From IMG/VR virus record IMGVR_UViG_2522572021_000010: 26,675 nucleotides of DNA. One strand, given 5' to 3'. Source of the DNA: a virus. Lineage: Duplodnaviria > Heunggongvirae > Uroviricota > Caudoviricetes. Of the stretch, positions 1-26,675 are shown one piece after another. Every line of letters begins with the position of its first letter. Positions within the stretch are counted from its first letter, which is position 1. The notes under the pieces are model-generated. The model had not been told where the DNA came from. It worked only from the letters and a program-made list of their open reading frames with translations, and did no database searches. A program made the translations under genes and the position numbers.

Positions 1-1316
1 TCACGAGCCATAACCCAACTCCTTCAAATACCCTGCCATCTCAACTTCCAGCTTCGCCAGTTCCACCTTCAGTTGCTCACGCTCTGCTCGCACCGCCACC
101 AGGTCAATCTCATCCTCTTCTTCAAAGGTATCGACATAGCGCGGAATATTGAGGTTGTAATCGTTGTCCTGAATTTCCTTCAGGCTGGCAAGATAGGCGT
201 ATTTCTCGACGTTATCGCCATCACGGTAGGTCTTGACGATTTTCTTAATGTTTTCTTCGCTAAGCTGGTTCTGGTTTTTACCTGCCTTGAATTCACGGCT
301 GGCATCGATAAACAGCACCTTGTCATCAACTTTCTACTTTTTGAAAATCAGAATCGCAGCCGGAATCCCCGTACCGTAGAACAGTTTTTCCGGCAGACCA
401 ATTACCGCATCCAGCAAATTTTCGTCGATCAGTTTCTGGCGAATTTTACCTTCGCTGGAGCCACGGAAAAGCACACCGTGTGGCACAACTACGCCCATAC
501 GGCCAGTTCCCGGTTTCAGGGTTTCGATCATATGCGAGATAAAAGCGTAATCTCCTTTAGTCTTCGGCGGTACACCGCGACGAAAACGGCCAAACTTATC
601 GTTCTCGGCCTCGTCATGGCCCCACTTATCGAGGCTGAACGGTGGGTTAGCGGTCACGATATCAAACAGCATCAGGTCGCCATTTTTATCGAGCAGCTTC
701 GGGTTACGAATGGTATCGCCCCACTCGATTTTATGGTTGTCTTCCCCGTGCAGGAACATATTCATTTTCGCCAGCGACCACGTAGAACCGATCGCTTCCT
801 GACCGAACAAGGCATAGTTACGACTATCATGCCCGGAGACAATTTTACGCCCACACTTCATCAATAATGAACCGGAACCACAGGCTGGATCGCAGATGGT
901 ATCACCCGGTTGCGGATCGAGCAGTTCTGCAATCAGGTCCGAAACTTCCGGCGGGGTATAGAACTCCCCGGCTTTCTGCCCACCGCTGGCGGCAAAGTTT
1001 TTGATCAGGTATTCGTAAGCATTGCCGATAACGTCCAGCGTACCGACACGACTCGGCTTCAGGTTGAGATCTTCACCGGCGAAGTCTTCCAGTAGCTGAC
1101 GCAGTATGGTGTTTTTCTGTTTTTCTTCGCCAAGACGATCGGTGTTAAACGAAATATCCTGGAACACGCTTTTCCCGGCATCTTTCAGTTTGGTTCCGTT
1201 GGCTTCTTCGATTGCATGCAGAGCCTGATCGATACGCTCACCGTTACCCAGCTCATGGCGGCGTTCGTACAGCGCATAAAAGCTGGCACTTTTTGGCAGT
1301 ACAAAACGCTCGTTGG
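1..1316 (-). pseudogene. hsdM: Type I restriction-modification N6-adenine DNA methyltransferase subunit (HsdM), disrupted
   Basis: Two same-frame minus-strand ORFs (334-1167 and 1-318) carry gamma-class N6-adenine methyltransferase motifs DPACGSG and NPPF. They are separated by an in-frame TAG at 334-336. The frame stays open upstream to 1316, where it runs into the IS inverted repeat without a plausible start, so the N-terminus is missing. Confidence 0.75.
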
Positions 1317-1370
1317 TGAACCGCCCCGGGAATCCTGGAGACTAAACTTCCTGAGAAAGAGGTAAACAGG

Positions 1371-1697
1371 ATGACTAAAAATACTCGTTTTTCCCCTGAA
1401 GTCCGTCAACGGGCAGTCCGTATGGTTCTGGAAAGTCAGGGCGAATATGACTCACAATGGGCGACAATTTGTTCCATTGCTCCAAAGATTGGCTGTACGC
1501 CGGAGACTCTGCGTGTCTGGGTTCGCCAGCATGAGCGGGATACCGGGGGCGGTGATGGAGGGCTCACCACCGCTGAACGTCAGCGTCTGAAAGAGCTGGA
1601 GCGTGAAAATCGTGAACTGCGCCGCAGTAACGATATCCTTCGCCAGGCTTCCGCTTATTTTGCGAAGGCGGAGTTCGACCGCCTCTGGAAAAAATGA
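1371..1697 (+). CDS. IS3-family transposase OrfA (helix-turn-helix, leucine-zipper part)
   Basis: 108 aa ORF starting [16 protein letters not shown]; coiled-coil segment [13 protein letters not shown] typical of IS3 OrfA; ends in AAAAAATGA overlapping orfB. Confidence 0.9.
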
Positions 1698-2584
1698 TGC
1701 CACTGCTGGATAAGCTGCGTGAGCAGTACGGGGTCGGACCGCTATGCAGCGAACTGCATATTGCCCCGTCAACGTATTACCACTGTCAGCAACAGCGACA
1801 TCATCCGGATAAACGCAGTGCCCGTGCGCAGCGCGATGACTGGCTGAAGAAAGAGATACAGCGCGTATACGATGAAAATCACAAGGTATACGGTGTGCGT
1901 AAAGTCTGGCGTCAGTTGTTACGGGAAGGTATCAGAGTGGCCAGATGCACTGTGGCACGTCTCATGGCGGTTATGGGACTTGCCGGTGTTCTCCGGGGTA
2001 AAAAGGTCCGTACGACCATCAGCCGGAAAGCCGTTGCCGCAGGCGACCGCGTAAACCGTCAGTTCGTGGCAGAACGACCTGACCAGCTGTGGGTGGCTGA
2101 TTTTACTTACGTCAGCACATGGCAGGGCTTCGTCTATGTGGCGTTCATCATTGATGTGTTTGCCGGATACATTGTGGGGTGGCGGGTCTCATCGTCCATG
2201 GAGACGACATTCGTGCTGGATGCACTGGAGCAGGCGTTATGGGCCCGTCGACCGTCCGGCACGGTCCATCACAGTGATAAAGGTTCTCAGTATGTATCGC
2301 TGGCCTACACACAGCGGCTTAAGGAAGCCGGATTACTGGCATCAACAGGAAGTACAGGCGACTCGTATGACAACGCGATGGCGGAGAGCATCAATGGTCT
2401 TTACAAAGCGGAGGTAATACACCGTAAGAGCTGGAAAAACCGTGCAGAAGTGGAACTGGCCACACTCACGTGGGTGGACTGGTATAACAATCGACGATTG
2501 CTGGAAAGGCTGGGCCATACTCCTCCGGCAGAAGCAGAAAAAGCTTATTATGCTTCCATCGGAAACGATGATCTGGCAGCCTGA
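1694..2584 (+). CDS. IS3-family transposase OrfB (DDE integrase domain), probably expressed as OrfAB fusion by -1 frameshift
   Basis: 296 aa ORF in -1 frame relative to orfA, overlapping at ATGA; rve-type catalytic region (WVADFTYV ... HSDKGSQY ... DNAMAES). Confidence 0.9.
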
Positions 2585-17089: not shown

Positions 17090-17617
17090 TTACTCAGGCT
17101 TTTGTGGCCATTCGGGATTTGCTGTATCCACACGGCTGACCAGAACGCTGTAGCGTTCCCATGACTCCAGTCGTGTGCGTTCCTCATCCGTCGCCATATT
17201 CAGCCTGACAGCGCGTTCCAGTGGCTGAATAACGCTTTCAGCTTCAGAAAGCAACGCGACCTTTTGTGATTCGGCCTGTTGTTGCTGTTCGTCTGCTGTA
17301 TAAATCCGCTTAACCACAGTTCCGTCCTTAAACATCCACTTCCCTGAATCATCGGCACGACGATTGGCTGTTATATCTGGAATCTCAACGACACTAAAGC
17401 CTTCGGGATTAAGCGTTGAGGCATCTTTGGTTATGGCAACAATAATATTATTTTCGTCGTATACAATCTTTATGGTGTCGTCCTGAAAGTTATTTACTTC
17501 CTCATACCAGTTTTTACCGTCTTCGGACCATAACCAGATAACATCAAAATTCTTTGTTAGCTGATATTGTTCTTTTGTTTTTGGATTTCCGGACTTAATA
17601 TTTTTTAAATGCTGCAT
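17090..17617 (-). CDS. Alternative tail fibre assembly chaperone (Tfa'), inverted orientation
   Basis: 175 aa paralogue of the plus-strand tfa, immediately downstream of the alternative fibre segment on the minus strand. Confidence 0.8.
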
Positions 17618-17620
17618 AAT

Positions 17621-18499
17621 TTACACCTGTGCGACGTTATACCATGTGCCATTGATGTATTTTTGTATTGGTCTGAAGATGGCTTCATCATCGCCATCTA
17701 CTTCACCAATGATTCTTAATCCGGTAATTGCGTGTCCGGCTTTTTCATAACGACCACCACGCGCCATCAATTGAACAACACGCGTACCCAGGCGAACATC
17801 TTTTACATAGCGTGAATCAAAATTCCCCCAGTTGCTGGGCTGTATCTGACCGTTAACAGAAAATATTACCGAGTTATCTGTATTTCGCTGGCTATAGAAA
17901 TGCCATCCTGCCTCATCGCCTAACTCTGCAACTACTGGACGGGTTGAAGCACCCCATAAATTAAACATTGCATTCTTTGTGGAGTTGTTGGAGCTGGATA
18001 GCGTGAATTTTTTACCATCCCCGGCCTGAATATTTTTAAAAGCAATAGCCACTCCATTCTGAAAGCGGAATACACGCTGACTATTAGCATAAACATCCAG
18101 AATACCGTCTCCATTCTGTTTAAATCCGGTGTCATTATCACCAAGAACAATAGAGCTACCACCTAACGCATTCGTCGAACCAACTCCAAGACTGCCATTA
18201 ATGACAGCATTAACAAGAATATTTAGTGCATCCCATTTCAGCGTCATCAGGTCTTTTGTTGTGGTGCTCTGGCGGCTTCTCCATTTGAAATATTCATTGC
18301 CGTTGTCGCCTGTTTCAAACCACATGTATGAATCAGTGTCACCATCGGCATCATTTTTAAATCCAATCTTCGCCCAGTCAGTATTTCGAATCCAGGCAAG
18401 GATTGAGTCATTTTCAAAAGTAAGCCCACCGGACAAGGTATCGCCATTTTTTTGCACGGCGTTACCAGCCCTGTTTACCGTTTCCTGTAAACCGAGGTT
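17621..18499 (-). CDS. Promoterless alternative tail-fibre C-terminal segment (Sv'), to be fused to H after inversion
   Basis: Minus-strand frame open from the crossover site to 17621. Ends ...FRPIQKYINGTWYNVAQV, parallel to the H C-terminus. No independent start with a ribosome-binding site; the frame is in phase with the H constant region across the crossover. Confidence 0.7.
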   Translation of the reverse strand, partial: NLGLQETVNRAGNAVQKNGDTLSGGLTFENDSILAWIRNTDWAKIGFKNDADGDTDSYMWFETGDNGNEYFKWRSRQSTTTKDLMTLKWDALNILVNAVINGSLGVGSTNALGGSSIVLGDNDTGFKQNGDGILDVYANSQRVFRFQNGVAIAFKNIQAGDGKKFTLSSSNNSTKNAMFNLWGASTRPVVAELGDEAGWHFYSQRNTDNSVIFSVNGQIQPSNWGNFDSRYVKDVRLGTRVVQLMARGGRYEKAGHAITGLRIIGEVDGDDEAIFRPIQKYINGTWYNVAQV

Positions 18500-18507
18500 T
18501 TAAATAA
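18482..18507. repeat. Right invertase crossover site (gix/pix-like)
   Basis: TTCCTGTAAACCGAGGTTTTAAATAA, an inverted copy of the site at 15804-15829; lies 54 bp upstream of the invertase start. Confidence 0.7.
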
Positions 18508-18561
18508 TGGCCGTTTCTGGCCTGCATGGCATGATTTGCGCTTTTGGACGGGAGATTCAGT

Positions 18562-19161
18562 GTGCTGATTGGCTATGTAAGGGTATCAACAAATGACCAG
18601 AATACAGACCTGCAACGAAACGCTCTTGTTTGTGCAGGATGTGAACAAATATTTGAAGATAAATTAAGCGGGACAAAGACAGACCGACCGGGATTAAAAC
18701 GCGCTTTAAAGCGCCTTCAAAAAGGTGACACGCTGGTTGTCTGGAAACTGGATCGCCTCGGGCGAAGCATGAAACATCTGATTTCTCTCGTCGGGGAACT
18801 ACGGGAGCGAGGGATTAATTTTCGCAGTCTGACCGACAGCATAGACACATCTTCTCCAATGGGGCGTTTTTTCTTCCACGTGATGGGTGCCCTGGCTGAA
18901 ATGGAACGTGAATTAATTGTTGAACGTACACTGGCCGGGCTGGCGGCAGCGCGCGCAAGGGGGCGCACAGGCGGACGTCGACCGAAGCTGACAAAAGAAC
19001 AGCATGAGCAAATAGCAAGGCTAATCAAAAACGGGCACGACAGAAAACAACTGGCAATAATTTACGGCATTGGCACATCGACGATTTATCGTTATCACCC
19101 TGTAGGCGATATACAGACTGAAGAAACAACCGGGCAGACTCAGGAAAATGAAAACCGCTAA
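18562..19161 (+). CDS. pin: Serine DNA invertase, Hin/Gin/Pin/Cin family
   Basis: GTG start after GGACGGGAG; N-terminus LIGYVRVSTNDQNTDLQRNAL with the catalytic Ser; C-terminal helix-turn-helix (GTSTIYRY). Near-identical over most of its length to the e14 Pin sequence as remembered. Confidence 0.85.
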   Translation: MLIGYVRVSTNDQNTDLQRNALVCAGCEQIFEDKLSGTKTDRPGLKRALKRLQKGDTLVVWKLDRLGRSMKHLISLVGELRERGINFRSLTDSIDTSSPMGRFFFHVMGALAEMERELIVERTLAGLAAARARGRTGGRRPKLTKEQHEQIARLIKNGHDRKQLAIIYGIGTSTIYRYHPVGDIQTEETTGQTQENENR

Positions 19162-26084: not shown

Positions 26085-26345
26085 ATGTTCCGTTGTCCGC
26101 TTTGTGGCGCATCTGCCCGTATCCGCACCAGTCGTCCGGAAAATGATTCAAACACCGTGCGGCAAAAGTATTACCAGTGTAACAACCTGGAATGCGGCGT
26201 ATGCTTCTCAACACTGGAAGCTTTCCATAAATTCACATCGAAACACGCCTCCGGCGTTCACTCATCAGAAGGTATCCCGTGGCATGAGCTGCCAGCTTCA
26301 CACAGGGGAAACAATCAGATGAGTTTGCCTTTACCTCAGAATTAA
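26085..26345 (+). CDS. ogr: Ogr/Delta-family zinc-finger late transcription activator
   Basis: N-terminus MFRCPLCG...YYQCNNLEC carries the Cys4 zinc-binding pattern of Ogr; AAGGAGG ribosome-binding site; last gene of the late region. Confidence 0.85.
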   Translation: MFRCPLCGASARIRTSRPENDSNTVRQKYYQCNNLECGVCFSTLEAFHKFTSKHASGVHSSEGIPWHELPASHRGNNQMSLPLPQN

Positions 26346-26534
26346 CAGGCAGAATTGCCGGAGTAACAAAAAAGCGATAGATTACGTGCGGGTGCCTTTC
26401 GGCTGATGGTCGGAGGGAATACCCGAAGGCCGGATGTGGAAAGGCCCCGGAAAACATTTCTGTTTAACCGAGGCCCTAACCCGTCAACCTAGCAAGTGAT
26501 AGGTTAGCGCCTCTCCAACAAAGGAGCAAGCGCT

Positions 26535-26675
26535 ATGTCGCAAAAATCGCTTACGGCCATCACGTTCTGCGTGACGGTAATCCTCATCATCTGGATGCTG
26601 CACGGTTCGCTGTGTGAAATACGGATGAGCTTCTGGGGAGCGGAGTTTGCGGCGTTCTTACAGTGTAAGCAGTAA
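26535..26675 (+). CDS. Hok/Gef-family type I toxin (small membrane peptide)
   Basis: 46-aa ORF (too short for the ORF track) after AAGGAG: MSQKSLTAITFCVTVILIIWMLHGSLCEIR...AAFLQCKQ. Has the N-terminal transmembrane helix, the SLCEIR motif and the AAF C-terminal pattern of the Hok family; ends exactly at the window edge. Confidence 0.7.
   Translation: MSQKSLTAITFCVTVILIIWMLHGSLCEIRMSFWGAEFAAFLQCKQ

Follow-up and report, generated by a model that had tools for sequence, protein, structure and literature searches.

A mok-less hok module carried as cargo by P2-like phages, and a proposed RNA-structural switch for its control

Introduction

hok/sok is a textbook antisense-controlled killer system, and translational coupling that depends on the mok reading frame is part of its definition. 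What, then, would control a hok gene into which no mok frame can be read? We address this question for a locus at the right-hand end of a 26,675-nucleotide stretch of tailed-phage DNA (the window; IMG/VR record IMGVR_UViG_2522572021_000010). A sequence-only reading of the window had noticed a short Hok/Gef-like gene behind the late-gene activator ogr, had expected the intervening spacer to hold a regulatory leader and an antisense Sok-like RNA, and had been unable to identify an overlapping mok-like frame. It offered three origins for the locus: phage cargo, flanking chromosome or a degenerate copy.

Results

The gene encodes an ordinary Hok/Gef peptide

The hok ORF occupies positions 26535-26675 on the plus strand and encodes a 46-aa peptide (MSQKSLTAITFCVTVILIIWMLHGSLCEIRMSFWGAEFAAFLQCKQ), its stop codon being the final triplet of the 26,675-nt window. 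The Shine-Dalgarno (SD) sequence AAGGAG lies at 26521-26526, with the ATG 8 nt downstream, and is kept across the homologue alignment. Pfam PF01848 HOK_GEF matches residues 7-44 with 30.1 bits (E 3.7e-7; gathering score 22), and PHROG 251, "MokW-like host killing," matches the peptide with 82.8 bits. Both the family and the good ribosome-binding site first proposed for this ORF were recovered. All seven of the residues that are more than 80% conserved in a published Hok catalogue, from which we took the list, are present (M1, C12, T14, L26, C27, E28, and E37), and C27, E28, and E37 are invariant among 15 subfamily members. Every named sequence among the 68 database relatives of the peptide is Hok/Gef, including one HokA, and the RefSeq entry for the ORF, WP_000078920.1, reads "Hok/Gef family protein." K-12 HokA, at 43% identity, is the closest named peptide and provides the best NCBIfam match, which at 35.8 bits does not reach the curated cutoff of 89 for the HokA equivalog (NF007290); R1 Hok is 39% identical over 31 aa. 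The median dN/dS of the ORF is 0.27 (12 homologues). We conclude that the peptide is a member of the Hok/Gef family under purifying selection.

The identical peptide is id 1628 of cluster 72 in the supplement to the Hok catalogue (Escalera-Maurer et al., bioRxiv 10.1101/2025.08.07.668861), and the tested members of that cluster, 72_1621 (1 aa different) and 72_1589 (Stx-phage type), are outside the three constructs found nontoxic there. The window peptide is a predicted toxin, toxicity having been reported in the preprint for the one-residue variant 72_1621. The gene itself, already annotated and catalogued, is ordinary. The catalogue covered the coding sequence only and omitted Mok, Sok, and mRNA structure, Mok being hard to predict (10.1101/2025.08.07.668861); a catalogue of coding sequences leaves regulatory diversity uncharted. 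The sole nontrivial point about this locus is regulatory, namely, that mok is absent throughout its subfamily; the rest is ordinary Hok cargo with an R1-type RNA apparatus.

The module is cargo of P88-like phages

The gene that precedes hok is ogr (26085-26345, plus strand; Pfam Ogr_Delta, 52.4 bits), itself preceded by gene D, and the spacer between ogr and hok measures 189 nt, in keeping with the approximately 190 bp first estimated. A terminator scan between ogr and hok found none, and with no intrinsic terminator in positions 26346-26389, transcription from ogr may continue into the hok leader.

The window is identical at every base to positions 2381378-2408052 of Escherichia coli O145:H28 RM12581 (NZ_CP007136.1). 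Its phage content is a P2-like late region only, from portal to ogr, and int, C, cox, B, and A are missing, from which it follows that the prophage is a remnant. At the left-hand end (window 1-2584), the phage late region is bordered by an hsdM pseudogene of a type I restriction-modification system and an IS3-family element. Comparison with K-12 revealed an island of ~39.5 kb at the 3' end of leuZ, flanked by a 125-bp direct repeat of that 3' end, and the K-12 leuZ region carries no hok sequence of this kind. We extended the window to the right, as the sequence-only reading had recommended, and found the right island/leuZ junction, where the 125-bp repeat starts, 943 bp past the hok stop (position 4919 of L001, the extended locus). 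A search for attR by comparison with phage P88 did not locate it, as the two sequences diverge directly past the terminator; the junction came from the K-12 leuZ region instead.

Gene order D-ogr-hok is found at 96-98% identity in the complete phages P88, PhiR44_2, Chuche, Shae_phiSM, and P884B11, and it recurs in a P2-like prophage of Salmonella, where Hok identity is down to 61%. Using a 976-nt D-ogr-hok query (end of gene D, ogr, and hok) and counting as a match at least 80% query coverage, we found matches in 761 of 5426 complete E. coli genomes (~14%). RM12581 itself matches this query in two places.

One of the three origins first offered was that hok belongs to the flanking chromosome, hok being the final gene ahead of the prophage end and the window stopping there. 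We exclude this origin: hok lies inside packaged or complete phage genomes, homology to P88 passes through hok and ends just after the terminator, the K-12 leuZ region lacks the sequence, and the junction repeat is 943 bp further right. The phage-cargo origin, by comparison, is borne out by the D-ogr-hok order of intact P88-like phages. In short, hok is cargo (a moron) in the ogr-attP slot of P88-like phages (Xuanwuvirus, P2 family), and the copy in the window belongs to a remnant prophage that lies at leuZ in E. coli O145:H28.

Two further features of the prophage drew our attention. Behind the hok terminator and outside the window, L001 4166-4447 holds a 93-aa ORF on the minus strand; P88 has a different ORF in this place, which makes the stretch between hok and att a second variable cargo slot. 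Within the window, a recombinase-family gene (18562-19161) adjoins oppositely oriented tail-fiber assembly genes, and the whole segment (17090-19161) looks like an invertible tail-fiber, or host-range, segment.

The module extends beyond the window

The window truncates the module at the hok stop. In the source genome, a 3' hairpin and the element fbi lie 10-65 nt further on, and the module as a whole is a unit of ~385 bp that runs from window position 26355 to window-equivalent 26740. The end at 26675 originally assigned to the element is therefore merely the end of the window, the module continuing for ~65 nt through the 3' hairpin and fbi. Beyond fbi, at window-equivalent 26762-26794, is a terminator that is not conserved outside the P2-like copies.

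Copies in Stx phages (next to lom), in other phages, and on plasmids are 73-94% identical over L001 3680-4041 only, which equals window 26379-26740; the matches to Stx phages and plasmids start at query positions 1-3 and end at 362-369. In a 14-sequence alignment, conservation reaches from GCGGGTGCC to GGCACCC and collapses on either side. The module boundaries at 26355 and 26740 fall where homology between replicons ends. The Stx-phage homologue in these comparisons is the locus next to lom, which is separate from hokW.

The hok mRNA carries an R1-type chain of helices

We place the predicted hok promoter, from sequence and conservation, at 26355-26383 on the plus strand (-35 TTGCCG, 26355-26360; 17-nt spacer; -10 TAGATT, 26378-26383). 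The pattern TTGnnn-17-TAnAnT is conserved among E. coli-group homologues despite their differing upstream flanks. This promoter matches the sigma-70 consensus at 8 of 12 positions and the predicted Sok promoter described below at 6 of 12. A consensus promoter scan of the module reported no promoter, the candidate on either strand falling below threshold, and for this reason both promoters are assigned by homology and conservation only.

The predicted transcript would begin at G26390, which aligns with +1 of the R1 hok mRNA and about where the homology of the phage and plasmid copies begins, giving a 5' leader of 145 nt (26390-26534, plus strand). Rfam model RF01794 matches 26390-26545 on the plus strand over its full length (47.3 bits, E 2.3e-9), and at the sequence level this match confirms the regulatory leader that had been expected in the spacer. 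The gathering score of 59 is not reached by the window (47.3 bits), by the P88 copy (47.9 bits), or by the Stx-phage copy (42.1 bits); the Rfam threshold misses the leaders of this subfamily. Although RF01794 is named "sok antitoxin," its 157-nt model fits the strand in hok sense, starting at the mRNA 5' end and reaching the hok start, and it models the hok leader rather than the ~60-nt antisense RNA.

Four elements of the R1 mRNA can be placed in this leader, all on the plus strand. The first, tac (GGGUGCCUUUCGGCU, 26390-26404), would pair with fbi (window-equivalent 26725-26740, outside the window) or with ucb (GGAAAGGCCCCGG, 26438-26450), which in turn would pair with tac or with a GAGG box (CCGAGGCCCUAACC, 26468-26481). 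The GAGG box is the homologue of the R1 mok SD and start region, aligned with R1, hokB, and hokW. The last element, dcb or the anti-SD (GGUUAGCGCCUCUCC, 26502-26516), would pair with the GAGG box or with the hok SD.

We folded the 351-nt RNA from 26390 to the equivalent of 26740 and obtained a free energy of -157.7 kcal/mol (z -5.9). In the full-length minimum free energy (MFE) structure, the first 15 nt are paired to the last 16 nt through 15 pairs, which constitute tac-fbi. We examined this pairing in 13 homologues from E. coli, Salmonella, Klebsiella, phages, and plasmids, using per-sequence duplexes and a swap test, because gap placement made column-wise covariation on the MAFFT alignment unreliable for tac-fbi. 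Outside an invariant GGGUGCC/GGCACCC core, the sequence varies and complementarity is kept, with compensatory variants CGGC/GCCG, CGAU/AUCG, CGAC/GUCG, and GGCUGAU/GUCAGCC. Across the 13, own 5' and 3' ends pair with -25.8 kcal/mol, compared with -23.4 kcal/mol for swapped ends, and 5 of 10000 permutations were as good, relatedness being uncontrolled in this comparison.

The inner helices are supported to differing degrees. RNAalifold predicts the tac-ucb helix (columns 1-11 with 50-59) with two covarying pairs, UA to CG and CG to GC, and a 3' hairpin with many compensatory changes; its GAGG box-dcb helix, CCGAGGCCCUAACC with GGUUAGCGCCUC (26502-26513), shows one-sided wobble changes only and no true covariation support. 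Computed duplex energies indicate that tac-ucb, ucb-GAGG box, and GAGG box-dcb are all formable in 13/13 homologues. On this modeling, the helices of the mRNA exclude one another in a chain of the R1 type: tac-fbi, tac-ucb, ucb-GAGG box, and GAGG box-dcb. Peptide length of 46 aa, SD, both predicted promoters, and all helices are kept across E. coli, Salmonella, and Klebsiella, even where peptide identity drops to 61%.

A Sok-like antisense gene is predicted opposite the leader

On the minus strand, we predict a Sok promoter at 26529-26501, with -35 TTGCTC (26529-26524), a 17-nt spacer, and -10 TAACCT (26506-26501); its -35 overlaps the hok SD on the opposite strand. The R1 Sok promoter, TTGCGC-17-TATCCT, occupies the homologous position with equal 17-nt spacing. 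The -10 TAACCT is invariant in 12/13 homologues, and the thirteenth has TATCCT, as in R1. The predicted Sok-like RNA of ~58 nt would run on the minus strand from 26493 to about 26436, a position homologous to that of R1 Sok, and it folds in R1-like fashion into a single-stranded 5' tail and a hairpin, GGCCUCGG...CCGGGGCC (-24 kcal/mol, z -3.3). At the level of sequence, then, the antisense RNA anticipated in the spacer has a counterpart, and a Sok-like antisense gene is predicted to be present.

The most variable block of the leader (alignment columns ~93-116, window 26482-26500) is the target of the predicted Sok 5' tail. This variability fits a diversification of antisense specificity that would avoid cross talk between coresident copies.

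mok is absent from the whole 46-aa subfamily

We searched for mok by asking whether any start codon lies in an ORF that reads into hok, in any frame. In known loci, this test finds an ATG at -58 in frame -1 (R1 and hokB) or an in-frame ATG at -57 (hokC and hokW). In the window, the triplet at -58, where R1 has the mok ATG, is TAA (26477-26479), and no ATG, GTG, TTG, CTG, ATT, ATC, or ATA is open into hok in any frame. The 18 subfamily loci that we compared share neither a conserved start nor a conserved ORF that runs on into hok. Frame -1 is closed in these loci by a stop whose position varies from -13 to -109, GTG and TTG codons in hok-open frames are few and scattered (-5, -28, and -38) with none conserved, and of the 18 only the Escherichia albertii locus has an ATG in a frame open into hok (-103, frame -1). 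Pairing with dcb accounts for the conservation of the sequence that takes the place of the mok start (CUAAC, CUAGC, or CUGAC).

Two ORFs in the leader were considered as substitutes for mok and rejected: 26406-26492, which ends before hok, just as the sequence-only reading had said of it, and is not conserved, and 26434-26499, which is likewise not conserved. The failure to find an overlapping mok-like frame was thus no oversight; it reflects a property of the 46-aa subfamily, from the whole of which the mok frame is absent. Because the absence is subfamily-wide, it does not represent decay of the copy in the window. That copy is also unlikely to be degenerate, the third origin offered, as its ORF, SD, promoters, and structure are intact and its peptide is under purifying selection. 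Our literature search found no description of a hok locus without mok; several older key papers were beyond its reach, and a prior description is possible.

Coupling of the canonical kind might nevertheless persist if an unconventional leader ORF, whether from the ATG at 26434 with its SD-like GAAGG or from a noncanonical start, replaced mok, with its ribosomes opening the hok SD hairpin. The Sok target encloses the ORF at 26434-26499, whose end is 2 nt short of the anti-SD, which a terminating ribosome could melt, and the E. albertii counterpart ATG is in frame -1 and reads into hok. However, the 26434 ATG is missing from Salmonella and Klebsiella members, and where it is present, the ORF may end as early as the next codon (ATG-TAG, ATG-TGA) or as late as the anti-SD. 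The window, moreover, lacks any start codon in the hok-open frames, and such codons are sporadic and unconserved across the 18 loci. We regard leader-ORF coupling as very unlikely.

A proposed anti-SD relay would control hok without mok

Our main reading, to which we assign a probability of roughly 0.6, is that the locus is a complete hok/sok-type type I toxin-antitoxin module, carried as P2-like phage cargo, in which hok is controlled by a direct anti-SD relay. A weak promoter would produce a hok mRNA of ~351 nt that is locked by pairing of its 5' and 3' ends. Trimming of the 3' end would remove fbi, tac would then capture ucb, and the freed GAGG box would capture dcb. As dcb would also be the hok anti-SD, its capture would expose the hok ribosome-binding site, and translation of a leader would be unneeded. 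Pairing of the Sok-like RNA with the ucb-GAGG box region would return the anti-SD to the hok SD, and the resulting duplex would probably also trigger RNase III cleavage. Should the element be lost or transcription be shut off, Sok synthesis would stop, Hok would be made, and the inner membrane would be depolarized. We infer the transcript ends, the Sok RNA, and the translation of Hok.

More tentatively, and at a little below even odds, we propose that a widespread phage and plasmid Hok subfamily has dispensed with mok altogether. In such a subfamily, a relay of helices ending in an anti-SD that is identical with dcb would switch hok on after 3' processing and off through Sok, without translational coupling. 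The absence of mok points to a simpler, purely RNA-structural switch without a leader ORF, and since this subfamily keeps every other RNA element, a Sok-like gene being predicted, it offers a natural test of which parts of the hok/sok mechanism are essential.

The structural basis of the proposed relay is a matter of spacing: the stretch from dcb to the hok SD is ~20 nt shorter than in R1, so that GGUUAGCGCCUCUCC would be both dcb and the hok anti-SD. The anti-SD/SD hairpin, GCGCCUCUCC...GGAGCAAGCGC, is found in 13/13 homologues and overlaps dcb. In MFE structures of the full-length RNA, this hairpin is closed; removal of the last 26 nt puts the GAGG box-dcb helix in its place, and masking of the Sok target restores the closed hairpin.

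We then compared the energy needed to open the whole ribosome-binding site, a measure that replaced the mean unpaired probability of the SD, by which the full-length, truncated, and Sok-masked states were not separated. For the hok site of the subfamily (mean of 13), the computed opening energy is 14.3 kcal/mol in the full-length RNA, 10.9 kcal/mol in the 3'-truncated RNA, and 14.1 kcal/mol in the truncated RNA with the Sok target masked. The corresponding values for the R1 hok site are 19.9, 18.1, and 17.8 kcal/mol, while the R1 mok site goes from 14.0 kcal/mol at full length to 8.0 kcal/mol when 3' truncated. In these models, the subfamily hok site behaves like the R1 mok site, whereas the R1 hok site stays closed. 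The effect is modest, ~3.4 kcal/mol with ~11 kcal/mol still required, and in three homologues (L009, L016, and L022) the opening energy is almost unchanged.

The small size of this modeled effect speaks for an alternative in which Sok acts by decay only, with the hok site constitutively usable after 3' processing and Sok merely creating an RNase III substrate, without any anti-SD relay. Cleavage of the duplex by RNase III is an established step in R1, and sokW partly requires it (PMC8621323; PMC4147584). Conservation of the anti-SD/SD hairpin and of its overlap with dcb in 13/13 homologues speaks against this account, as does the observation that R1 repression still works in an rnc mutant (PMC4147584), and we consider it rather unlikely.

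The main rival to the anti-SD relay is that the module is a silent relic, in which the mok start has been lost, Hok is essentially untranslated, and the module persists by hitchhiking on successful phages and plasmids. Substitutions in the R1 mok start codon abolish Hok synthesis (PMC9841398), so loss of mok could mean silence and not a new mechanism. Several chromosomal hok loci of K-12 are inactive, for example, hokA with IS150; a decayed hok leader elsewhere in this island, ~700 bp downstream, is evidence that modules of this kind decay; and the ~11 kcal/mol still needed to open the hok site in the supposedly active form is compatible with silence. Set against this are the 46-aa ORF, SD, both promoters, and every helix, kept across genera to 61% peptide identity, together with the median dN/dS of 0.27. 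An invariant Sok -10 is hard to explain if there is nothing to repress, and a near-identical peptide has been reported to be toxic when expressed (10.1101/2025.08.07.668861). On balance, we judge a silent relic to be unlikely and continue to favor the anti-SD relay.

Comparison with known systems

Of the characterized loci, hok/mok/sok (parB) of plasmid R1 is alike in most respects. Both specify a Hok/Gef peptide behind a leader that is homologous from +1, and both have tac-fbi end pairing, tac-ucb, and pairing of an SD box with dcb. In R1 the Sok promoter overlaps the hok SD and Sok RNA consists of a 5' tail and a hairpin, an arrangement that is also predicted here. R1 differs in having the mok ATG at -58, which the window subfamily lacks, and in the length of its leader (173 nt versus 145 nt here) and peptide (52 aa versus 46 aa); it is plasmid-borne rather than phage-borne. 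K-12 hokA/sokA differs in having an annotated mokA and in being disrupted by IS150, and with this insertion in its leader, it was uninformative as a comparator.

Like the module in the window, hokW-sokW of Stx2 prophage Sp5/933W is a prophage-borne hok/sok locus (PMC8621323), and the PHROG label "MokW-like host killing" applies to both. The two differ in cluster, in peptide length (HokW has 51 aa), and in the in-frame MokW start at -57. The hokW-sokW locus of Sp5 speeds lysis and phage release after induction (PMC8621323), which by analogy makes such a role a candidate for the window module. Possible biological roles are stabilization of the prophage or island, help with lysis, and phage exclusion.

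Type I systems without a leader ORF exist in aapA/IsoA of Helicobacter pylori and in zorO/orzO (PMC5397157). Their mechanism resembles the one we propose in that a long-range lock is followed by end processing that exposes the toxin SD, and a small RNA represses in the 5' untranslated region. Their peptides and RNAs are unrelated to those of hok/sok, and the likeness is mechanistic only.

Other copies of the module

A second, decayed hok promoter and 5' leader, with -10, tac, ucb, and GAGG box but no hok ORF, lies at L001 4681-4783 (window-equivalent 27380-27482), ~700 bp downstream of hok and 135 bp from the island/leuZ junction. Its alignment score is 84, against 23.5 +/- 4.1 for shuffles, which suggests an earlier or tandem hok module at the leuZ island site. 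Salmonella enterica contigs contain two tandem 46-aa hok modules, 360-500 bp apart (L022 801-941 and 1440-1580; L023 801-941 and 1305-1445).

A search for related loci returned seven, three of them from implausible hosts. These three (L004, L005, and L008, from a Planococcaceae metagenome-assembled genome and the Vagococcus sp. and Xanthomonas pisi assemblies) carry E. coli-type hok with 74-100% peptide identity, and contamination of the assemblies is the most likely explanation for their presence.
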